DNA of 53,538 bases from an uncultured Bacteroidales bacterium (GCA_946613135.1 CAMOFI010000001.1:1-53538), one strand, 5' to 3'. Counted from the first letter of the stretch, positions 12,581 to 36,242 are shown. Numbers and translations are program-made. The notes: generated by a model not told the origin, from the letters alone.

Positions 12581-12619
12581 AAAACAAAAAAAAGAACCAT
12601 CTGTCGTTCCAGATGGTTC
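12581..12619 (-). terminator. Rho-independent terminator after the lipoprotein gene
   Basis: Perfect 10-bp stem GAACCATCTG (12594-12603) / CAGATGGTTC (12610-12619) with a 6-nt loop. On the minus strand it is followed by a T-run (plus-strand AAAACAAAAAAAA, 12581-12593). It starts 26 nt after the stop at 12645. Confidence 0.75.
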
Positions 12620-12644
12620 CATATCGATTCTGTGTCGCCCCGAT

Positions 12645-13308: not shown

Positions 13309-14934
13309 TCAAAATCCCATGCCGAACATTTGCCAATACTTGGCTTCAAGCTGTTTCCATGCATAAGCGGTGTTGTCATATACCCGATATGTATAGTCGT
13401 TCAGGAGGTTGGCAATTTGCGGGCCAGGGTTGAAATCGTGACTTTCTCTTTCTTTAAGGTTTTTCACGCTGTTCTCAAGTTCACTGAGGCCATCCATGGC
13501 TTTATGTTCCTGGTCGAGAACGACCGACAACATTTCTTTCTTTGTACGCTGCCATGCAACGGTGGCAAGTTTGTTGGCCTTGCGGTACTGCCACAGGACT
13601 GCGTTCTCGTCAAATTTCTTCTGCCCACAGGTGTTGAATGCCTGCGGCAGGCGGCTTGTACCGCAGAAGATGGGAACACGTGGACTCTGCCCAGGATTGT
13701 CGACAGCCATCCAGCATATGCCTCCCACCTCGTCGGGCAACCAGTCGCGCAACTGAGCAACAAACGAATAGGAGCACCATGCAACACTCACCGTACGCTT
13801 GAAATCGACAGTGCCAGGCTTTATTGTGTTAAATGTGTTCTGCATATTGCCTCCCATCCACGGATTGGCGATGGGACTTGTTATAGTATCTTTAACCACT
13901 GTGCCATCGCTCTGTTTACGGTTGACGACAGTCGTTAGGTTTCGACACATATCCATATCTGTACCTTCGTAGGTTGAACGAAGAAGTTGCATGACATCAC
14001 TTACATCGACACTCTGGTCCGGCTTTACGGAGAATGGCAGTTCGTCCATGTCCTGAGAGAGCTGCAGCGATGGAGCCAAAGAGTTCAAAATAAAGAATTC
14101 ACGTTCACGGAAGTTTTTCCCGTTGGCATAAGAGGCATTGAACGCTTTCCAGAAAACAAAGTCGCCTTTACCATCCCAAAGTCCATATCTTAAAGCCACA
14201 CTCTCAATGTTGTCCGAGCACATAAAATTCTCTTTGTTGTCGCGCTGAAGCCGACCGATGCGAGGGATGTTGGCACTGACGGCCACATGGTTGTCAGGAA
14301 CCCTCTGCGCTGCCCATACACCTCCTATTCTGTCACGGCCTTCACCGATGATTTCCATCTGCCACACTTCGTTCTTGTCGGCAATGGTTATGCATTCGCC
14401 GCCATCGGCATAACCGTACTCTTTGACTAATGATCCGATAAGCCGGATAGCATCACGGGCATTGTCGCAGCGCATAAGAGCCACTCTCTCCAACTCTTCA
14501 ATAAGAAAAAGGCCATTAGGGTTTCTCAACGTATCAGGACCTCCAAATGTCGTCTCTCCTATGGCAAGTTGTTTCTCGTTCAGGCACGGATAGGCAGTAT
14601 TAAGATAGGCGTATGTATGTGCCACCTGCGGAATGGTGCCGGCGATTGTCACTCCTGTGGTGTCGTCACGATAGGCTGTATGCATTGTGCCCTTACGCAC
14701 TGTATGCCTTTCGCCTTGCTTGTAGTTGTGTGCAGGTTCGATGGTCATCCATGTACGGTAACGGCCGTCACAAGTATGTGATGTGATTACAGACCCGTCA
14801 GACGAGGCTTTCTTGCCAACCATTATCGATGTGCACGACTGTCCGTCTACAAGTTGAGAATTGTAGTCGGGATTCTGTGCTTTCAGTATAAATGCAGAAC
14901 AGAGTATTCCAATAGTGGCGATCAGTTTTTTCAT
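13309..14934 (-). CDS. C69 family dipeptidase (secreted)
   Basis: 541 aa with signal peptide. CTSIMVGKKASSDGSVITSHTCDG matches the N-terminal Cys-nucleophile region of peptidase family C69. Confidence 0.85.
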   Translation of the reverse strand: MKKLIATIGILCSAFILKAQNPDYNSQLVDGQSCTSIMVGKKASSDGSVITSHTCDGRYRTWMTIEPAHNYKQGERHTVRKGTMHTAYRDDTTGVTIAGTIPQVAHTYAYLNTAYPCLNEKQLAIGETTFGGPDTLRNPNGLFLIEELERVALMRCDNARDAIRLIGSLVKEYGYADGGECITIADKNEVWQMEIIGEGRDRIGGVWAAQRVPDNHVAVSANIPRIGRLQRDNKENFMCSDNIESVALRYGLWDGKGDFVFWKAFNASYANGKNFREREFFILNSLAPSLQLSQDMDELPFSVKPDQSVDVSDVMQLLRSTYEGTDMDMCRNLTTVVNRKQSDGTVVKDTITSPIANPWMGGNMQNTFNTIKPGTVDFKRTVSVAWCSYSFVAQLRDWLPDEVGGICWMAVDNPGQSPRVPIFCGTSRLPQAFNTCGQKKFDENAVLWQYRKANKLATVAWQRTKKEMLSVVLDQEHKAMDGLSELENSVKNLKERESHDFNPGPQIANLLNDYTYRVYDNTAYAWKQLEAKYWQMFGMGF

Positions 14935-14960: not shown

Positions 14961-16037
14961 CTAAGCACTCATAATCAACTCAAAGCATCGGGCGGCAGGC
15001 TCGATGACGCTGTCAGGGAATACGTAGCAAGGGTTGTGCAATTCGGGTTGGTCTTTGCCACTTCCAATACCGAAAAAAGCACCTGGCATTATTGTCAGAT
15101 ATTCTGCGAAATCCTCACTCCACCTAAAAGGCCGGTCTATCAATTCGACAGGAAAATGTGGCGACAGTATATCATGGATTTTATCAACAAACGCAGCATT
15201 GTTTTCTGTTGCTTTGAAAGGCTCTTTGAGTTGCTTTTCCAATTTGAGCTGATGTTTGTCCGACTCGTCGATAGCTATGGTATCGGCAGCCGACATCAGG
15301 TCGTGCATGGCATCGTTTGTGAAAGAACGCAACGTGAACATCAGTTCGCCACAACCGGCCGAAGTACCGAAGGCCTCCTCTCCCACTCTGCAGCATACCA
15401 AAGTAGACTGACGAAAGCTTTTAGGATCGCTTGTGATTCTATTCAATGCATCAAAACGGACAATAGCCGAAGCTATTGCAAGTGCCGGATTAAGACCTTT
15501 TTCCGGTGTAGAGGCATGAGTGGCTCTACCGACGAAACGGTACACCACACCACACGATGCTGCAGCGAAGGTGCCGCGGTTCAAGACCACCGTACCTTCT
15601 GGATAACCAGGCAGATTGTGCAATCCAAAAATTGCGTCGACATGGTATTTCTGAAGCAGGTTGCTTTGGATTATCTTCTTGGCTCCTTTGCCTGTCTCCT
15701 CTTCGGGTTGGAAGACGAGGACAATGTTTTTGACATGTTCAGACTGGGCGACAATCTGAGCAAAACGGAGCATGATGGCCGTGTGTCCGTCGTGTCCGCA
15801 ACGGTGACCGATGGGGAGCGCATCGATATCAGCCCTGAATGCAAGCGTGGGAGCATTGGGCACACACGCACGCCAATAAGCCACCACGCCATATCCGCCG
15901 ACATGGGTGTTCAGTTCGGTAGGATGCAAGTCTGAAAGAAAGCGCACAATAAGATCGTGGGCATAGCTTTCGCATCCAGAAACACCTGGGTTGCTATGCA
16001 GCTGTTTGCGCAATTCCATTATGTCGGTTGAAAGCAT
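14961..16037 (-). CDS. M20 family amidohydrolase (M20D-like)
   Basis: 358 aa. Metal-ligand motifs DIDALPIGHRCGHDGH and QPEEETGKGA. Somewhat shorter than the typical M20D length of about 380-400 aa. Confidence 0.8.
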   Translation of the reverse strand: MLSTDIMELRKQLHSNPGVSGCESYAHDLIVRFLSDLHPTELNTHVGGYGVVAYWRACVPNAPTLAFRADIDALPIGHRCGHDGHTAIMLRFAQIVAQSEHVKNIVLVFQPEEETGKGAKKIIQSNLLQKYHVDAIFGLHNLPGYPEGTVVLNRGTFAAASCGVVYRFVGRATHASTPEKGLNPALAIASAIVRFDALNRITSDPKSFRQSTLVCCRVGEEAFGTSAGCGELMFTLRSFTNDAMHDLMSAADTIAIDESDKHQLKLEKQLKEPFKATENNAAFVDKIHDILSPHFPVELIDRPFRWSEDFAEYLTIMPGAFFGIGSGKDQPELHNPCYVFPDSVIEPAARCFELIMSA

Positions 16038-16061: not shown

Positions 16062-18839
16062 TCAAACGTTCCGTTTCAAGACTTTATCCTTGAAATCGCG
16101 TCCTCGTTCTTCAAAGTTTTTGTAATGGTCATAGCTGCTTGCCGCTGGCGAAAGCAGGCAGATTTTTCCCTTGGCAGTATACTGCGAAGCAAACACAACG
16201 GCATCGCCCATCGAGTAATCAGGCTCAAAATGCATCATCATCCTTTTCTTGCCGGCCGCCTCGGCATCGATATCCGACATGCAGTCGACAATCTGTTTGC
16301 CTGCCGTTCCGAAAAGAACAAGATTCCGCACTTGACATCCCTTATCGCTTCTCAACAGGTACTGCGCCAATGGATTATAGTCTATGCCTCTGCTATAGCC
16401 GCCAAGAATCAATGTGTCAACATCCTTCAAGGCCTCAATGGCAGCAATCGTAGCTTGGGGTATTGTGCTTATTGAATCATTATAGTATACAACACCATCA
16501 ACAACAGAAACGAACTCAAGACGGTGTTCCAATCCCTTGAACGATGCCACCGATTCGAGAAAATCGTTGACACTGATGCCAATACTCTCGGAGACAAGCC
16601 ATGCTACATATATATTCGAAAGGTTGTGGTCGCCAACTAAGGGCAAAGAGACTCCTTCAAAAGGCTTGAAATCTTTTGCCTCTTGGAGGCTGTAAGGATG
16701 AATGTGCGACACAATACGACCATCCGACTCTACCACTTTGGTTCTGAGGTCGTTGTTGTCGCCACAATAGAAAAACACACCATTATTATCCTGATTTACG
16801 GCTATCTGCATTTTTGCATTGCAGTAGTCCGCATAGTCATGATAATGGTCAAGATGTTCCTGAAACAGGTTGAGAAGCACCGCCACGTGTGGCGCCCGAT
16901 GGATGTTCTGCAACTGGTGACACGATAGTTCGGCTACGACAATACAGGATTCATCCATCTTTCCAAGTATATCAAAGAAAGGTATCCCTATATTTCCTGC
17001 AAGAATTACATCCTTGCCATGTAGCGACTTGGACAATACATCATATATCAGACTTGTTGTAGTGCTCTTGCCTTTGGTGCCAGTGACACCGATGGTGATA
17101 TCACCAAACACACGGAGGAAAAGGTCTGTTTGAGATGTAATCTTCGTCATGTCGCAGTGACCTTCGAAAACAAAATCCGGTATACCTGGCGATTTGATAA
17201 TCAAGTCGTAGTCGTTACTTTTAAGGAGCGACAGTATTTCGTCGTTGTTATTGGCCACATCGAACGGACGGCCTGGAAACATCTTGCTGAGCAAAGAGGC
17301 ACTACTTCTCCCCTCCCTTCCATAGCCGGCAATAAGAATGCGCTTGCGAGCCAAGAGGTTGAAAAGCCGGTTGTACCGGAAGAACTGCTCAACACTTCTC
17401 GACGGAACCTCTTTGGCAGAAACAGCGTCGTTCACTGTGTCCGCACACAGCGCCTTATAAAGAATAGACCAATCTCGCTTGGGCAGATTATGGTTTGTCG
17501 AGACACTGTCGAGAGAGATATCTACAGGAAGTGGACTATAGTTTTGTAGCAATGCCGGCAACTTGTCGGTATACCATTTTGCTATCGTGATAGCCAGGGC
17601 ATTGTTGACCTCACTGACAGTGCCTACACATTCGAACGGCTTGGTCTCGGCCACGCCTACGAGTTGGTCGAACTCGTGCTTCATTGAGATGTCGTCGAGC
17701 ATGTCCTTGCCGAAAATCATCGCAAGGCGATGAGGTTCTATAAAGGGTGAAAGAATAATGTAGGCAAACAGACATTTGGCGCAGTGACCGCACCACACAT
17801 CCTGCTTGCTGCCAACGTTGCAGCTCCTGAAAACAGGGTGGTACTTGTCGAACCTGGCAAAAAGCATGGCAATCTGCAGTTCGCATAGAGGACGCAGAAA
17901 ACTGTAATAATTGAATTCCGGCGATATATACTCTCTTACATATTCCCTGAAGTCGTTCTCAAACTCGAGACTTTTCGAGTACTGATGGTTTACGTTAGTT
18001 CCAAGCACTGTACTCTCGTTGGCACTGTTCTCGTTAGAAAGAGCTATGTCTGGACGGGATGCCGTCATTGCCGAAGTAAGCAACGAATAGAACGCCAACA
18101 TGGCACTGAAAGGGGTATGACCATTGAGGGCTCCCGACTTGTTCTCCTGCAGCAGTCGCGGGTCGATAGTGCGGTTGATGACGATGACATCGTCCATCGA
18201 AAAACCAGCAGCTTCGACACACCCTATGGTGGCGCCGCGAGGATTCATGATAAGAGGCAATGGAAGTTTCTGTTTCCCGTTGTCGCCTATTCGGCCCGAA
18301 AGCAGTTCAAGGGTTACTACAGAGTCTTTCCCTCCACCTATAGGAACTATATGACTGTCTGTATCAAGGGTTGGACGAAAGATGTGCTGTATGAATTTAG
18401 GTGCAAAGGCAGACGACGGACTTTGTATCTGCATAAAGTCATCAACGCTTGCTTCGATTCCATTAGTATAGAAAAACTCGCCCAAACCATTATAGTATAG
18501 TTTTTTCCAGAAAGAAATCTGACGTTCTTCCAGTTTATATGGACATATCGTGACCAAAGGAGGACAATAGCACTTCCAATAGCTCACCAATTCAATCATT
18601 CCAATGTTAAACACCAACGCGTCGAGTGTCTGGGGCGAGAGATGGTCTGTTGTGAGGAATCGGCGCGAAGGCACTACAGCGCTCGGCTCAAAAACCACAT
18701 CCCTGCCAGGTTGCGAAGCGACAAGGCGAAAACAAAAAGTGATGTGCAGCCCATCTGGCTGCACATCATATTTGAAACTTTCGTAGATGAACTCTTTGAA
18801 ATTCCGTCTAAAAGTGCTATAGTCGTTCTGTCTTGTCAT
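16062..18839 (-). CDS. fusion protein: N-terminal QueC-like PP-loop/4-Cys domain + C-terminal MurD-type UDP-MurNAc-L-Ala--glutamate ligase
   Basis: 925-aa continuous ORF. N-domain (about aa 1-495, nt 17352-18839) carries GGGKDS (nt 18321-18338) and C-x9-C-x2-C-x2-C (nt 17772-17822). C-domain (about aa 497-925) has the Rossmann stretch ILIAGYGREG, the Mur ligase P-loop GVTGTKGKSTT (nt 17061-17090), GDHNLSNI and GLEHRLEFV. Confidence 0.85.
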   Translation of the reverse strand: MTRQNDYSTFRRNFKEFIYESFKYDVQPDGLHITFCFRLVASQPGRDVVFEPSAVVPSRRFLTTDHLSPQTLDALVFNIGMIELVSYWKCYCPPLVTICPYKLEERQISFWKKLYYNGLGEFFYTNGIEASVDDFMQIQSPSSAFAPKFIQHIFRPTLDTDSHIVPIGGGKDSVVTLELLSGRIGDNGKQKLPLPLIMNPRGATIGCVEAAGFSMDDVIVINRTIDPRLLQENKSGALNGHTPFSAMLAFYSLLTSAMTASRPDIALSNENSANESTVLGTNVNHQYSKSLEFENDFREYVREYISPEFNYYSFLRPLCELQIAMLFARFDKYHPVFRSCNVGSKQDVWCGHCAKCLFAYIILSPFIEPHRLAMIFGKDMLDDISMKHEFDQLVGVAETKPFECVGTVSEVNNALAITIAKWYTDKLPALLQNYSPLPVDISLDSVSTNHNLPKRDWSILYKALCADTVNDAVSAKEVPSRSVEQFFRYNRLFNLLARKRILIAGYGREGRSSASLLSKMFPGRPFDVANNNDEILSLLKSNDYDLIIKSPGIPDFVFEGHCDMTKITSQTDLFLRVFGDITIGVTGTKGKSTTTSLIYDVLSKSLHGKDVILAGNIGIPFFDILGKMDESCIVVAELSCHQLQNIHRAPHVAVLLNLFQEHLDHYHDYADYCNAKMQIAVNQDNNGVFFYCGDNNDLRTKVVESDGRIVSHIHPYSLQEAKDFKPFEGVSLPLVGDHNLSNIYVAWLVSESIGISVNDFLESVASFKGLEHRLEFVSVVDGVVYYNDSISTIPQATIAAIEALKDVDTLILGGYSRGIDYNPLAQYLLRSDKGCQVRNLVLFGTAGKQIVDCMSDIDAEAAGKKRMMMHFEPDYSMGDAVVFASQYTAKGKICLLSPAASSYDHYKNFEERGRDFKDKVLKRNV

Positions 18840-21619: not shown

Positions 21620-22647
21620 ACAAGAGACTTGCAATACCAATATGTTTTTTTCTGTCGGCATTTTTCTCAGGATGCGAAAAAATACTCATGTCTGAAGATG
21701 CCGACCCATCGCCTGTCGCAGTATTCGAGTATTTATGGAAGCAGGTCGACGAACGCTATTCTCTTTTCGACGTCAAGCAGGTGGACTGGGACAAGATGCA
21801 CGACAGTCTGCGACCACAGGTATACAACACAATGTCGGACGACAGTCTTTTTGCGGTATTGAGAAAAATGCTAAACAGCCTTGACGACGGGCATGTAAAC
21901 CTTTGGGGCAATAACGATGTAGCCAGCAGCGAAGCAATATTCCTACAGAAATACGGCAAATCAAATTTCGACATAAACACTGTGGCCCTCTCCTACCTGC
22001 GTGCCGACTACCACACCACCGGCGGAATGGCTTACAACACTATCGACTCTGGACGTGTATTGTATATCCGTTACAGTTCCTTCAGCAGCTCTGCATCCCC
22101 AAGCCAACTGAGAACCATACTGAAACGATATCCGGACATCGACGGAATCGTTTTCGACATCAGACAAAACGGTGGTGGCGAAATCCAGAATGAATGGAAC
22201 ATCATGTCCATCCTTCCAAGCCAGGAGCAAATGCTTTACTCCACACAACTCAAGAACGGGAAATCCCATTTCGCTTTTTCAGAGCCCGTAACCGTATATG
22301 CTCCGCAAAACAAAGACTCTGACATTTTTCACAAACCTTTTATCCTGCTAACAGACAGAGGATGTTACAGCGCCGCTTCAAGTTTTGCCTTATGCCTTAA
22401 AAGCTTTAAAAATGTCACTGTCGTCGGCGACACTACCGCTGGAGGACTCGGCATTCCGGCCGGAGGCGCTCTGCCAAACGGCTGGCACTACCGCTTTGGC
22501 GTAAGCCGCATATTGGCACCTGACGGAATCAACTACGAAAACGGTGTCCCTCCCGACCGCACAATCATGCTCGACCCCTCCGCATTAGCCAACAGGCGCG
22601 ACAACATCATTGATTCTGCATGCAGCATAATAAGAGAATTAAAGTAA
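21616..22647 (+). CDS. S41 family peptidase lipoprotein
   Basis: 343 aa. Lipobox FFSGC. S41 motifs DIRQNGGGE, TDRGCYSAASSFA and VVGDTTAGG. Confidence 0.8.
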   Translation: MNKRLAIPICFFLSAFFSGCEKILMSEDADPSPVAVFEYLWKQVDERYSLFDVKQVDWDKMHDSLRPQVYNTMSDDSLFAVLRKMLNSLDDGHVNLWGNNDVASSEAIFLQKYGKSNFDINTVALSYLRADYHTTGGMAYNTIDSGRVLYIRYSSFSSSASPSQLRTILKRYPDIDGIVFDIRQNGGGEIQNEWNIMSILPSQEQMLYSTQLKNGKSHFAFSEPVTVYAPQNKDSDIFHKPFILLTDRGCYSAASSFALCLKSFKNVTVVGDTTAGGLGIPAGGALPNGWHYRFGVSRILAPDGINYENGVPPDRTIMLDPSALANRRDNIIDSACSIIRELK

Positions 22648-22676
22648 ACAACAAGAACATCAAAAACAACAAAATA

Positions 22677-25361
22677 ATGAATCTTTCCGACTTTCTGATA
22701 CGAGCAAGCTATCCGAACTATTTCATGGTGAAAAAATATGCCGACATGGGGCGGGAAATATTCAATCGCAACATCGAGGACAAAGACAACCAACTGAAAG
22801 GCAACAAACCAGGCACGGTGATCTATAACCTCGATGACGGAAGCCGTCACGAATTTCCTCCGAGATGGTATGACATGTATTATTTGCTGCGGCAACGAGC
22901 CGACAACCGCAAACGCTACCTTGAGTTGCTTCTGAGAGAACGTTATGGCGAACAGCTTTGCGACAGTAACGGCAACGCTCATCCTGCAACAAACAAGATT
23001 CCAGAATTAGAGACTATCAGGAACAATTTCAGAGAAACATGTATACAATATGTTGCCGACAATCCACTGGTAAACAGCCCCGACTTGATAACAACACTCG
23101 TGGAAGGCGATTTCAGCGACGAACAAATAAGCTACAAGGGGCGTATGCTCCTTGACCTCACACGCAACTGCTATCCTGTTCCCGACTTCTGCATCCTTAC
23201 CTCCAACGCTTTTCAGAAAGAAGACCAACTCGAGCAACTCCTCGAACAAGCCATTGCCAACCTTGAAGTGATGACTGCTTATAAATTAGGCAGTTCCGAC
23301 AACCCGCTTGTTTTTGCCATACGATGTGCTATGCCACAATACATACCCGGACTGATGCCGACACTGCTCAATATCGGCGTCACTCGCGATGCCTACAAAG
23401 GTCTTCTCAGACATCACGCACGTTCCATGGCCAATCGTGTATACCTGAGCACCTTACACACCATCAGCGAGATGCTCTCGATCGAGAAAAAATACGACCG
23501 AAATGACATAGAACTCACAACTGACGAGCAAGAGGCACGCATCAAGACCATGGAAAAATCCATTATCAGCGCACGGGAAGATGGAGAACGCCTTCTTTGC
23601 GACGCCCATTACCAAGCCCTGAAACTTGTCGAATATGTACGAGCATTCTATATAGACAATCAAGACCTAATCCTGACCTTCATGCAAGGCAAACAAGCCT
23701 ACCCCTCGCTTATACTGCAGCGTATGGTATGGACTATAGGCAACGAGGAATCCTATCCCGGCGTACTCTACAGCCATCACAGCCGCACAGGACAAGGACG
23801 GCAAGTGGAAAGCTACCGTAACATTTTTGGCGAGGAAATCATGACTGGCGACGTGACTTCTATTGACATTTCGTATACTGACAGAAACGAAATAAAAACG
23901 GAATATCCTGCAGTATTTCACTTCGACCCGCTGCTCGATTCGCTCGAAGAGAAACTCAAATCGCCTGTAACAATAGAATTTGCCGTCGAGACACGGCCTC
24001 AAAAGACGAGTCTCTTCGCTGTCCTTCAGCTGAACATGTCAGAAATGACAGGTCGGGCCGCTCTTATTTCATCAATCGACTTGCTGAACCGCGGAATGAT
24101 TGAGGAACACGATGTCACCTCACTAATAAAACCGTACCATCTACGCCAGATTGTCAGCAACTCAATAGACGATCGTTCCATGTCTCATCTCGACTTTTTC
24201 GGACGCGGGCTCAGCGTACTGCCTCGCACAGCAATTTCGGCGACACTCTGTTTCAGTGCACAAAAAGCACAGGAACTCAAGAAAAACGGAGTGGCCGTAT
24301 GTCTCTGCCAAGAACGCTTTGTGCCCGAGGACACCATCACCCTTGGCGAAATCGACGCCATACTTAGCATGACACCTGCCGCCATCCATGTCGTCACCGC
24401 ATGTCGCGGTTACGGCATTCCGGCACTGATGAATCTGCAAAATTATGGCATACACAAAGTCGGCAACAAGATAGTCAACAACAATGGATTGGAAATCTAC
24501 GAGAACGATCCTGTGACCATCTCAAGCAAACATCAGACCATATACAAGGGCATTGCCGACTTCAAGCCTGCACGATTCACAAAATACATAAATGGAGAAA
24601 AAGTCAAACTGGAACCTGACGAGGTGAAGTTTTTCGAGGACATGAAACAAGCCTATTCCCGCTACCAGGATATTGTCACTTCCGACAAAGCCTCATTTAT
24701 TACCGACATCAACAAACTGGCAAGACTGATACGCTGCGACCTGCAAGACAAGCCAGAAACAGCACGCAACATTGTCAATGCATGGTACAGCGGCAATGCA
24801 GACCTGTACATCAAACAGGTTCTCGAAAGCAAGATGGGCGACCACCAAGACCAGTCAAGAGTATTCAACCTGCTTTCGAACGACAGGAAAGTCGACTTTT
24901 TCAAACGAGCCTCAAAACAGTGCATCGACAATGGCATGAACGGCTTGAAAGCAGGTGCTTTCATGCTTGGAAGATTTGTCGCACGTCCACTGCCTACTGC
25001 CATTTGGAACCTACTGAGCGACCAGACAGTGGCTTTTCTGCTCAACGAATATGTCCTATACGAGAAATACCTCCACGTACTCGAGGAGGTTGGAGAGATA
25101 AGGCTGGCACGAGCTCACTCGAAAATCGAGACTGAAGGTATCGACAATATGATAATAAACAACTTCAACCTATATACTTTCGTCACCCTCCTGGATTCAA
25201 GCCACGACTGGGACAATGTCTGCAAAGAACTGGAGCAATTGGACCATCAAGACAACACCCATCTGCTTGTCGAGAAACTGAGCCATCCCATAGACGAAAT
25301 ATTCGACACGAAAAAGTCATGGGTCGCCTATGAGATAGAGAACTACAGGAAAATCCAATAG
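22677..25361 (+). CDS. pyruvate,phosphate-dikinase-like protein (ATP-grasp + phosphohistidine swivel domain) with non-canonical N- and C-terminal regions
   Basis: The ORF is open from ATG 22620, but that start overlaps the S41 gene by 28 nt, so I prefer the ATG at 22677 (MNLSDFL). PPDK-like blocks: YKGRMLLDLTRNCYPVPDF, SDNPLVFAIRCAMPQYIPGLMPTLLNIG, FGEEIMTG, IEFAV...LQLN. Swivel motif TPAAIHVVTACRGYGIP has its His codon at 24387-24389. The last roughly 260 aa show none of the PEP/pyruvate TIM-barrel motifs. Confidence 0.8.
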   Translation: MNLSDFLIRASYPNYFMVKKYADMGREIFNRNIEDKDNQLKGNKPGTVIYNLDDGSRHEFPPRWYDMYYLLRQRADNRKRYLELLLRERYGEQLCDSNGNAHPATNKIPELETIRNNFRETCIQYVADNPLVNSPDLITTLVEGDFSDEQISYKGRMLLDLTRNCYPVPDFCILTSNAFQKEDQLEQLLEQAIANLEVMTAYKLGSSDNPLVFAIRCAMPQYIPGLMPTLLNIGVTRDAYKGLLRHHARSMANRVYLSTLHTISEMLSIEKKYDRNDIELTTDEQEARIKTMEKSIISAREDGERLLCDAHYQALKLVEYVRAFYIDNQDLILTFMQGKQAYPSLILQRMVWTIGNEESYPGVLYSHHSRTGQGRQVESYRNIFGEEIMTGDVTSIDISYTDRNEIKTEYPAVFHFDPLLDSLEEKLKSPVTIEFAVETRPQKTSLFAVLQLNMSEMTGRAALISSIDLLNRGMIEEHDVTSLIKPYHLRQIVSNSIDDRSMSHLDFFGRGLSVLPRTAISATLCFSAQKAQELKKNGVAVCLCQERFVPEDTITLGEIDAILSMTPAAIHVVTACRGYGIPALMNLQNYGIHKVGNKIVNNNGLEIYENDPVTISSKHQTIYKGIADFKPARFTKYINGEKVKLEPDEVKFFEDMKQAYSRYQDIVTSDKASFITDINKLARLIRCDLQDKPETARNIVNAWYSGNADLYIKQVLESKMGDHQDQSRVFNLLSNDRKVDFFKRASKQCIDNGMNGLKAGAFMLGRFVARPLPTAIWNLLSDQTVAFLLNEYVLYEKYLHVLEEVGEIRLARAHSKIETEGIDNMIINNFNLYTFVTLLDSSHDWDNVCKELEQLDHQDNTHLLVEKLSHPIDEIFDTKKSWVAYEIENYRKIQ

Positions 25362-35216: not shown

Positions 35217-36242
35217 TCAGTCGACAAAAATCGCTTCGCATTGCAGCGCGACGTCAAACTTTGTCTTGACATCACTGGCTATTGCATTGGAGAGTTCAAA
35301 GACCTCTGCACCTGTGCAACCGCCAAGATTGTAGAGTACAAGGGCCTGCTTGGGCCATACGCCTACTCGTCCTACGCTACGGCCTTTCCATCCGCACTTG
35401 TCTATAAGCCAACCGGCCGAGAGCTTGTTGCCTGGATAGCGTGGCATGTCGGGATATCGGTCGAGCAGAGCGTTGTATGTTGCGTCGTCGACTATTGGAT
35501 TTTTAAAGAAACTGCCAGCTGACCCATAGACTTCCGGACGTGGCAGTTTGTTCCATCGAAGATCGATAATGGCATTACGCAATTCTATGGCCGAAGAATG
35601 TGGTAGCGAGGTAATAGCCTGATATGCAAGATTTGGCCGGAATGTATGAAAGAGGCGGTATGAGACATTGATGACAATGTAGCGCCCTGGGTTGTGCTTG
35701 AATATGGAGTCACGATAGCCGAAGCAGCATTCTTCAGCCTTCAATGTCACAAACTCCTTCTGCTTCAAATCGTATGCATCCACGCAGTAAACAACATCTT
35801 TGGCTTCGACGCCATAGGCCCCTACATTCTGAACCACAGAGGCACCAACCGTGCCGGGAATGGCTGACAGATTTTCGATACCATAGAGATCGTGCTCAAT
35901 ACTCCACTGTATTACATCGTCGAGCAACATTCCGGCATCGGCACTGACAAGTGTGGCCTCTTCGCCAAGAGGACTGGCATTCACCCCACCCTTTGACATT
36001 AATATAACAGTGCCGTGATAATCTTTTGTAAAAACGATGTTACTTCCCGCACCCAGTACAAGGTATGGTCTGTCGAACATCCTGCCTTCATACAGTTCTT
36101 CGATAGCATGAGCATAACGGGAGGCTGGAGACCCGCTGCCTGAAGGCTTCACCTCTACAAGCTGTTCCGTGCTGACATCTATCCCAAAGGTATTGTAAGG
36201 CAATAGTGAGACGTTATGTAGAACCGTCAAATTATTGTTCAT
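35217..36242 (-). CDS. murB: UDP-N-acetylmuramate dehydrogenase
   Basis: 341 aa. FAD-binding LVLGAGSNIVF. Overall MurB type I layout. Confidence 0.92.
   Translation of the reverse strand: MNNNLTVLHNVSLLPYNTFGIDVSTEQLVEVKPSGSGSPASRYAHAIEELYEGRMFDRPYLVLGAGSNIVFTKDYHGTVILMSKGGVNASPLGEEATLVSADAGMLLDDVIQWSIEHDLYGIENLSAIPGTVGASVVQNVGAYGVEAKDVVYCVDAYDLKQKEFVTLKAEECCFGYRDSIFKHNPGRYIVINVSYRLFHTFRPNLAYQAITSLPHSSAIELRNAIIDLRWNKLPRPEVYGSAGSFFKNPIVDDATYNALLDRYPDMPRYPGNKLSAGWLIDKCGWKGRSVGRVGVWPKQALVLYNLGGCTGAEVFELSNAIASDVKTKFDVALQCEAIFVD

Follow-up and report, generated by a model that had tools for sequence, protein, structure and literature searches.

In Xanthomonas, the stem peptide of peptidoglycan has been described as acquiring its D-glutamate by an alternative route, in which the MurD homologue MurD2 (XOO_1320) adds L-Glu and a second protein, MurL, acts in the L-to-D direction only, requires ATP and Mg, and yields AMP, with adenylation of the alpha-carboxylate as the proposed mechanism (Ogasawara and Dairi minireview, PMC8788868). 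Micromonospora and Salinispora orthologues of MurL have been assayed as well (Feng et al. 2017, as cited in PMC8788868 and PMC5808125), and the organisms in which the pair has been described are reported to be without D-Glu-forming genes (PMC8788868). The published distribution covers some Gamma- and Alphaproteobacteria, rare actinobacteria and "low similarity" matches in cyanobacteria, a fungus and an amoeba (PMC8788868, PMC5808125). Here we describe a 53,538-nucleotide (nt) stretch of DNA from an uncultured Bacteroidales bacterium (GCA_946613135.1 CAMOFI010000001.1:1-53538; referred to in its entirety as the window), in which one open reading frame (ORF) probably encodes a bifunctional enzyme of this MurD2/MurL route, as judged by analogy with the characterized proteins.

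A single ORF spans a MurL-like domain and a MurD-type ligase

The window, an unbinned metagenome scaffold of chromosomal origin (ENA ERZ28612953; GC content of ~47%), carries the housekeeping genes valS, lpxB, surE, gldF/G, folE, rpe, purA, topB, murB, dxs and mmdA. The ORF lies on the minus strand, opening with an ATG at 18839 and closing with a stop codon at 16062-16064; it encodes 925 amino acids (aa) with no internal stops and was called identically on the source scaffold. The MurL model NF041275 spanned aa 72-427 of the protein and the murD model TIGR01087 spanned aa 501-920; the E-values of 1e-71 and 1e-83 for the two halves were such that chance resemblance was not an issue. A first-pass annotation of this DNA had described one uninterrupted 925-aa ORF with a domain boundary at this point and had quoted six motifs. 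Both the ORF and the boundary were borne out, and all six motifs were located at the nucleotide positions that it had assigned, four of them in the ligase half (ILIAGYGREG, aa 501-510; GVTGTKGKSTT, aa 584-594; GDHNLSNI, aa 736-743; GLEHRLEFV, aa 769-777) and two in the N-terminal half (Table 1).

The same annotation placed the gene outside a division and cell wall (dcw) cluster, which holds true of the 53.5-kb window. Queries with E. coli MraY, FtsW, FtsI, FtsZ, RsmH and MurI found no homologues among the ORFs of the window, the match lists for MurC, MurE, MurG, Ddl and FtsA not having been gone through in full. In family scans of the larger ORFs (four ORFs beyond 46.4 kb excepted), murB was the sole other Mur enzyme and no second murD was detected.

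The N-terminal half is a MurL relative with a predicted PP-loop

Family models run on both halves matched MurL, not QueC/ExsB, in the N-terminal half and TIGR01087 murD in the C-terminal half. The NF041275 match covered profile positions 57-404 of 447, and homology to Xanthomonas-type MurL extended over ~350 residues. Two Pfam families, MurL_N (PF26299) and MurL_epimerase_C (PF26298), both matched this exact protein and its relatives at an E-value of ≤1e-5, as they do the Xanthomonas-type proteins; these calls are precomputed matches for the identical protein, the other Pfam scan having seen Mur_ligase_M only. Ten stand-alone MurL relatives scored 215 to 275 bits against NF041275, indicating that none of them is from the Xanthomonadales. 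An AlphaFold model of the N-terminal domain based on a 25-sequence alignment had a predicted local-distance difference test (pLDDT) score of 87.7 and a predicted template modeling score of 0.88 (pLDDT of 34 when no alignment was supplied). It was folded from aa 7 to ~465, with a disordered linker beyond, and comprised an N-terminal beta/helical part and a PP-loop alpha/beta core. A sequence search with the N-terminal half against the PDB found no solved structure, and MurL is structurally uncharacterized in the structure libraries searched.

PP-loop enzymes adenylate carboxylates or carbonyls, with release of pyrophosphate. Comparison of the MurL family profile with PDB sequences gave eight matches, all of which were to PP-loop ATP pyrophosphatases and all of which lay at the beta-strand and GGGKDS loop; they included TtuA PH0300 (E-value of 3.9e-4), MJ0690, MnmA and GMP synthase, with GGGKDS aligned to their SGGKDS loop. 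The PP-loop proposed in the first-pass annotation was upheld by these comparisons, and the assignment fits the formation of AMP. It would also provide a structural basis for the proposed adenylation by MurL. The SGGxDS-type loop is shared with QueC, TtuA, MnmA, NAD synthetase and GMP synthase, together with the presumed adenylation of a carboxylate or carbonyl and release of AMP. The domain in the window differs from these enzymes in having a MurL_N part and NGHTPFS, SNExSANE, NHQYSKS and KPFECVG motifs without counterparts there, and in its predicted outcome, which is epimerization and not amide formation, nitrile formation or thiolation.

Residues invariant among 25 MurL homologues were Y87, K89, C92, G169, G170, K171, D172, N239, G240, H241, P243, S245, S268, N269, S272, N284, H285, Q286, K289, L315, R316, P317, S339, C340, N341, W349, C350, C353, K355, C356, K400, C404 and G406. 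Two of them, Cys92 and Cys404, are candidates for a catalytic acid/base or thiol, a role that we infer from their invariance. The cluster C340-x9-C350-x2-C353-x2-C356 had been described in the first-pass annotation as arranged like the zinc site of QueC-like enzymes. This likeness stood at the level of the motif and failed at the level of family membership: hhalign against E. coli QueC gave a probability of 4.8% and aligned the Cys motif alone (FRSCNVGSKQDVWCGHCAKC with LTCYNGFKGD-GCGHCAAC), the cluster being matched at this low probability to the QueC segment TCYNGFKGDGCGHCAAC. The cluster is probably a structural metal site, with structural zinc the more likely role, because activity is reported with only ATP and Mg2+ added and no further cofactor is named (PMC8788868).

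Membership of two other families was examined and rejected. Models for QueC/ExsB, NadE, AsnB and GATase had no matches to the ORF at an E-value of ≤1 in Pfam and NCBIfam, and no MurT-type model matched. As regards MurT/GatD, GATase and DUF1727 domains were absent from the ORF and its neighbors in the same scans.

The ligase half carries residues associated with L-Glu specificity

In MurD2, Glu197, Arg358, Pro433 and Phe435 stand in place of Asp182, Lys348, Ala414 and Leu416 of E. coli MurD; an E197D/R358K double mutant of MurD2 was fully switched to D-Glu, and a K319T substitution caused E. coli MurD to accept L-Glu (PMC8788868). We aligned E. coli MurD (from NC_000913) with the window protein and its relatives, including 73 MurL-linked ligases from other genomes. 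The ligase domain had ~32% identity to E. coli MurD, and its best PDB match was S. agalactiae MurD (E-value of 3.9e-41). As in both MurD2 and the canonical MurDs (E. coli b0088; 1UAG, 3LK7, 7SIR, 7SY9), the MurD fold and the catalytic residues were retained: the P-loop GKS was present, each of the residues equivalent to H183, K198, T321, S415 and F422 was conserved in at least 72 of the 73 ligases, and a seven-sequence alignment showed no variation at the P-loop lysine or at the N138 equivalent.

The specificity positions gave a different picture. At E. coli positions 182, 319 and 348, the window ligase has Glu, Ile and Arg, whereas the three proteobacterial enzymes (E. coli, 7SIR and 7SY9) have Asp, Lys and Lys and 3LK7 has Thr, Lys and Arg. 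Among the MurL-linked ligases, Glu occurred at position 182 in 71 of 73, and Ile at 319 and Arg at 348 occurred in 73 of 73. The Glu and Arg residues are those of MurD2. Position 416 is occupied by Tyr in the window (Tyr903) and in 72 of the 73 ligases, compared to Phe in MurD2 and L, F, L and W in the E. coli, 7SIR, 7SY9 and 3LK7 enzymes; an aromatic residue here is not diagnostic, because two of these four solved canonical MurDs carry one. The window ligase differs from MurD2 in having Ser (Ser901), not Pro, at the position of E. coli A414 and in forming the C-terminal half of a fusion. On these alignments, the diagnostic marks are Glu at 182 and loss of Lys319. The pattern of canonical D-Glu MurDs (a residue other than Glu at 182, Lys at 319 and usually Lys at 348) was not found in the window ligase. 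Overall, these comparisons support classification of the C-terminal half as a MurD2-type ligase with the published L-Glu determinants.

A variant pattern was observed in two Firmicutes (Lachnospiraceae) loci, L079 (Pseudobutyrivibrio xylanivorans DSM 14809, NZ_FQYQ01000007.1) and L071, in which murL and murD2 are adjacent, with murF and ddl beside them in L079. In their ligases, the Asp of E. coli D182 is retained, whereas the Ile319 and Arg348 changes are both present.

MurL is paired with a MurD-like ligase across genomes and has been fused to it repeatedly

A search with the N-terminal domain recovered 2,602 clusters at 50% identity with an E-value of ≤1e-3, of which 1,147 had an E-value of ≤1e-30. 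The best 150 of the 2,602 clusters consisted of ~112 stand-alone proteins (~450 to 480 aa), ~33 MurL-MurD proteins, two MurD-MurL proteins and two MurL-MurD-M20 proteins. With each GTDB species represented by a single genome, a MurL relative was found in at least 595 species-level genomes, and gene pairing was counted in the best 80 of these. Most of the 80 were uncultured Bacteroidales/Bacteroidota from rumen, gut, sediment and lake, with Ca. Colimorpha, Onthomorpha, Limimorpha, Lentimicrobiaceae, Marinilabiliales, Draconibacterium and Marinifilum among the taxa represented; some were Lachnospiraceae, including the cultured P. xylanivorans DSM 14809. In 69 of the 80 genomes, a murD-like gene came directly after murL in the same orientation, the two being fused in 12 and adjacent, often overlapping, in 57. 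Genetic coupling to a MurD-like ligase is a feature shared with Xanthomonas-type MurL. The suggestion in the first-pass annotation of a MurL-like epimerase fused to a MurD2-like ligase was substantiated by this pairing, by the MurL models and by the L-Glu residues.

Eleven of the 80 genomes had no adjacent murD-like gene; two of these loci were cut by contig ends, and nine fell in one part of the tree. Bacteroidales loci with a MurL and no adjoining murD-like gene were L048, L066, L069, L070, L072, L074, L078, L083 and L087. On a neighbor-joining tree of the MurL domain, eight members of the MurD-less group formed one clade, L074 was its sister and L072 lay just outside.

Fused forms were found in at least five separate clades of this tree, and the clade of the window (the window, L005 and L008 to L010) was nested within a clade of split pairs. 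At least 58 clusters with 49 to 66% identity covered 98 to 100% of the protein with the same architecture, indicating that the fusion is no assembly artifact. The fusion is real, recurrent and, in the lineage of the window, recent. Repeated fusion of this kind is a classic mark of enzymes that catalyze consecutive steps.

Other MurL fusions were noted among the clusters (P0129, P0196, P0247 and P0266), namely, reverse-order MurD-MurL proteins, a PF01225-type Mur ligase (MurC/E/F-like) joined to MurL, and a MurB-MurL protein. The latter two kinds were singleton clusters that might be gene-calling artifacts. Queries with the E. coli proteins found no murI, mraY or ftsW near murL-murD2 in 92 loci of ~13 kb each, and the only dcw-type finds were a murF and ddl pair (L079), a lone murG (L050) and ftsA (L070). 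Public annotation of the fused proteins (P0003, P0014, P0015, P0036, P0055, P0089 and JGI entries) ignores the MurL half, and the public label "D-glutamate ligase" is probably wrong on stereochemistry.

Alternative explanations for the fused gene

Several observations weigh against assignment of the ORF to the MurD2/MurL route. The N-terminal half scored 239.9 bits against NF041275 and failed the threshold of this Xanthomonadales equivalog model, which is set at 700; because the score is so far under this cutoff, the domain is, on sequence, a distant MurL homologue and not an orthologue by NCBI's criterion. A Foldseek search of the good N-domain model against the PDB returned nothing at an E-value of ≤1e-3 (best E-value of 0.078), with NAD synthetase and a TtuA-like sulfurtransferase in the weak tail of matches; as there was no significant neighbor, the fold neither confirms nor refutes the PP-loop assignment. 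The ligase residues were mapped indirectly, via the E. coli numbering given in the review. Furthermore, a canonical streptococcal MurD also has Arg at the K348 position, so that the specificity signature rests mainly on Glu661 and Ile790.

The genomic setting could suit an auxiliary paralogous pair that sits beside a canonical dcw MurD and a glutamate racemase and provides a backup D-Glu route or acts on another UDP-muramyl or glycopeptide substrate. The gene lies outside a dcw cluster, its operon contains genes for a coiled-coil lipoprotein, an M20D amidohydrolase and an exported C69 dipeptidase and not Mur genes, and one clade of MurL homologues is without any adjacent MurD. However, the pair constitutes the D-Glu route in the characterized organisms, whose genomes were reported without D-Glu-forming genes (PMC8788868). 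All Mur-ligase catalytic residues are retained in the ligase, whose score exceeds the cutoff of the murD equivalog, the pairing is kept in hundreds of species, as expected of a housekeeping function, and a second murD or murI was found in none of the 92 loci (weak evidence, at ~13 kb each). The first-pass annotation had taken the ligase for a second MurD, a paralogue of the housekeeping enzyme; by analogy with the organisms in which the route was described, this may be wrong, and the fusion could supply the only MurD. We regard an auxiliary pair as unlikely; a MurL-MurD2 fusion serving as the sole housekeeping route would be more likely than a paralogue.

A different division of labor, in which the C-terminal half is an ordinary D-Glu MurD and the N-terminal half a QueC-like adenylating amide synthetase that makes iso-glutamine or amidated diaminopimelate with ammonia, would draw on the PP-loop motif, on the alignment of the Cys4 motif with the QueC zinc-site segment and on QueC chemistry (carboxylate to adenylate to amide), which is compatible with AMP release. 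An amidotransferase with an outcome like that of MurT/GatD had been the second reading offered in the first-pass annotation, and it was not sustained: there is no glutaminase or MurT-type domain, the QueC/ExsB, NadE, AsnB and GATase models were unmatched, and the resemblance to QueC is confined to the Cys motif. The N-terminal half falls instead in the MurL family, characterized members of which epimerize without ammonia, and the attached ligase has an L-Glu, not a D-Glu, signature. With such a ligase, an epimerase would be required as the partner and an amidase would not suffice. Amidation is accordingly rated very unlikely. As for the single ORF itself, the nearest split relatives have overlapping or abutting murL and murD2 genes that one base change could join, and a lost stop codon or a frameshift in the metagenome assembly might have merged two adjacent genes. 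This explanation is close to negligible, since dozens of 90%-identity clusters, independent of one another and drawn from many samples, contain the fused form at 98 to 100% coverage, it occurs in 12 species-level genomes in at least five clades, and the linker is in frame with its length kept within the clade of the window.

Proposed pathway

The evidence obtained here for placing the fusion in the MurD2/MurL route comprises sequence homology in both halves, which fall in the families of this pathway at the Pfam and subfamily level, the residues at the specificity positions, the Cys4 and PP-loop motifs, conserved pairing of the genes and fusions that arose several times independently. By analogy with the Xanthomonas, Micromonospora and Salinispora enzymes, we propose what the substrates are, that epimerization runs from L to D and that AMP is formed. 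The ligase domain (aa ~498 to 925) would use ATP, with formation of ADP, to join L-glutamate, not D-glutamate, to UDP-N-acetylmuramoyl-L-alanine. The MurL domain (aa ~1 to 465) would then consume a second ATP, with formation of AMP, the PP-loop site adenylating the alpha-carboxylate of the terminal L-Glu. Adenylation, or transfer of the carboxylate to a thiol, would render the alpha-proton acidic enough for removal by a general base, the center would be inverted and the adenylate would be hydrolyzed. Candidates for the general base are the invariant Cys92, Cys404, His241, His285 and Lys289, and Cys92, Cys404, His241 and His285 may, in our own proposal, serve as acid/base or thioester residues. 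Fusion would place the two active sites on one chain at a 1:1 stoichiometry, with the ligase product made beside the epimerase site, and may allow channeling of the L-Glu intermediate.

The covalent linkage to the ligase distinguishes the window domain from Xanthomonas-type MurL, as does its origin in the Bacteroidales, in a phylum outside the published distribution. The PP-loop motif of the window domain fits the ATP-to-AMP stoichiometry reported for the Xanthomonas enzyme.

Distribution and significance

The chemistry is not new: knowledge of the MurD2/MurL pathway dates from 2017, and the MurL domains are already recognized by Pfam families. With respect to the literature, what is new is that MurL and MurD2 are fused, that they occur in Bacteroidales and Lachnospiraceae, that MurL is explicitly assigned to the PP-loop enzymes, that MurL-linked ligases share a Glu/Ile/Arg signature and that M20D is associated with the pair. 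In a literature search, which did not extend to subscription journals, MurL was nowhere reported to be a PP-loop enzyme, to occur in Bacteroidota or to be part of a fusion.

The route has been held to occur in "relatively few bacterial genera," and this confined distribution led to its proposal as a narrow-spectrum drug target in Xanthomonas and Stenotrophomonas (PMC8788868). Our data point the other way, as ~2,600 clusters and at least 595 species-level genomes were detected, many of them gut and rumen Bacteroidales and nearly all ligase-coupled with the L-Glu signature. Should these proteins all share one function, abundant commensals would likewise be affected by inhibitors of the pathway, thousands of "D-glutamate ligase" annotations would be misnamed on stereochemistry, and the supply of D-Glu in a large part of the Bacteroidales would be independent of glutamate racemase. 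The natural fusion is a convenient single-chain object for studies of MurL mechanism and structure, and P. xylanivorans DSM 14809 is a cultured organism suited to testing of the pathway.

Table 1. Coordinates of the fusion gene, its predicted domains and residues, and other features of the window
Feature	Coordinates	Strand	Evidence or remark
Predicted bifunctional MurL-MurD2 fusion, whole ORF	16062..18839	-	NF041275 and TIGR01087; precomputed Pfam MurL_N, MurL_epimerase_C and Mur_ligase_M
MurL-like epimerase domain (predicted), aa 1-465	17445..18839	-	NF041275, E 3.9e-71; AlphaFold model; 25-homologue alignment
PP-loop motif GGGKDS, aa 168-173, presumed ATP pyrophosphatase/adenylation site	18321..18338	-	G169, G170, K171 and D172 invariant
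Invariant Cys92	18564-18566	-	25-homologue alignment
Cys4 cluster, aa 340-356 (CNVGSKQDVWCGHCAKC)	17772..17822	-	All four Cys invariant
KPFECVG motif, aa 400-406, with invariant Cys404	17622..17642	-	Invariant columns, 25-homologue alignment
Interdomain linker, aa 466-497	17349..17444	-	pLDDT <50 for aa 469-495; stop and new start here in split relatives
MurD2-type ligase domain (predicted), aa 498-925	16065..17348	-	TIGR01087, 279.9 bits (cutoff, 211.95)
Glu661, at E. coli MurD Asp182 (MurD2 Glu197)	16857..16859	-	Alignment
Ile790, at E. coli MurD Lys319	16470..16472	-	Alignment
Arg817, at E. coli MurD Lys348 (MurD2 Arg358)	16389..16391	-	Alignment
Intragenic hairpin and T-run, codons 25-37 of fusion gene	18740..18768, T-run to ~18728	-	Conserved
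Coiled-coil lipoprotein, 577 aa	18841..20574	-	Lipobox ...AFQSC
M20D amidohydrolase	14961..16037	-	TIGR01891, Peptidase_M20; HRCGHDGH and QPEEE active-site motifs
C69 dipeptidase with signal peptide	13309..14934	-	
Lipoprotein, 203 aa	12645..13256	-	Followed by strong terminator-like hairpin
Terminator-like hairpin and T8	12593..12620	-	Closes putative operon
murB	35217..36242		Family scan
GldF-GldG in one ORF, 818 aa	5692-8148	-	GldF, aa 1-238; GldG, aa 252-810
913-aa protein	22620-25361	+	No Pfam match

Neighboring genes and the M20D amidohydrolase

The fusion gene is the second of five genes in a putative operon that runs from 20574 down to 12645, with spacings of 1 nt (from the stop codon of the coiled-coil lipoprotein gene to the murL ATG), 24 nt (to the M20D gene), 26 nt (to the C69 dipeptidase gene) and 52 nt (to the gene for the 203-aa lipoprotein). 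A 646-aa counterpart of the coiled-coil lipoprotein was encoded upstream of the gene in the relatives L005 and L092.

In the closest clade (window, L005 to L018 and L092), all loci not cut by a contig end had M20D directly downstream, often with an overlap, irrespective of whether murL and murD2 were fused or split, a further difference from Xanthomonas-type MurL. In P0023 (24 member sequences, contig checked) and P0044, MurL, MurD2 and M20D form single proteins of 1,247 to 1,260 aa. M20D was missing from more distant MurL-MurD2 fusions; in a 45%-identity group of 874-aa proteins, a gene for a class II fructose-bisphosphatase takes its place. The closest solved relatives of M20D were ILL2, YxeP, an AbgB-like protein and N-acyl-glutamine aminoacylase, which cleave N-acyl amino acids. 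It is possible that M20D acts on the UDP-MurNAc-dipeptide in editing or recycling. A fuller three-part scheme, in which a cytoplasmic M20D aminoacylase, translationally coupled to MurL-MurD2 or, in some lineages, fused to it in a polypeptide of ~1,250 aa, removes un-epimerized L-Glu for editing or recycling and the hairpin within the first 110 nt of the gene tunes expression of the module, is doubtful. If true, M20D editing would bring to the synthesis of peptidoglycan precursors a kind of proofreading not known there.

A conserved hairpin and other observations

The intragenic hairpin has a perfect stem of 11 to 12 bp (GATGTGCAGCC-loop-GGCTGCACATC) followed by ACTTTTTGTTTT, with a folding energy of -22 kcal/mol. 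It was kept in the closest clade only (window, L005, L008 to L012 and L092). Synonymous third positions were frozen in the stem and varied in the loop and flanks, and compensatory double changes were present at two pairs. The element could be an attenuator/terminator-like RNA structure or a palindromic protein-binding site.

Two further proteins of the window were unusual. The gliding-motility ATP-binding cassette permease genes gldF and gldG, which are normally separate, were joined in one ORF. A 913-aa protein without a Pfam match gave a weak partial match to TIGR01828 (pyruvate phosphate dikinase) of 118 bits against a cutoff of 843, and an ~893-aa protein, likewise without a Pfam match, occupied the same position in L005 and L092, beside an S41 peptidase.

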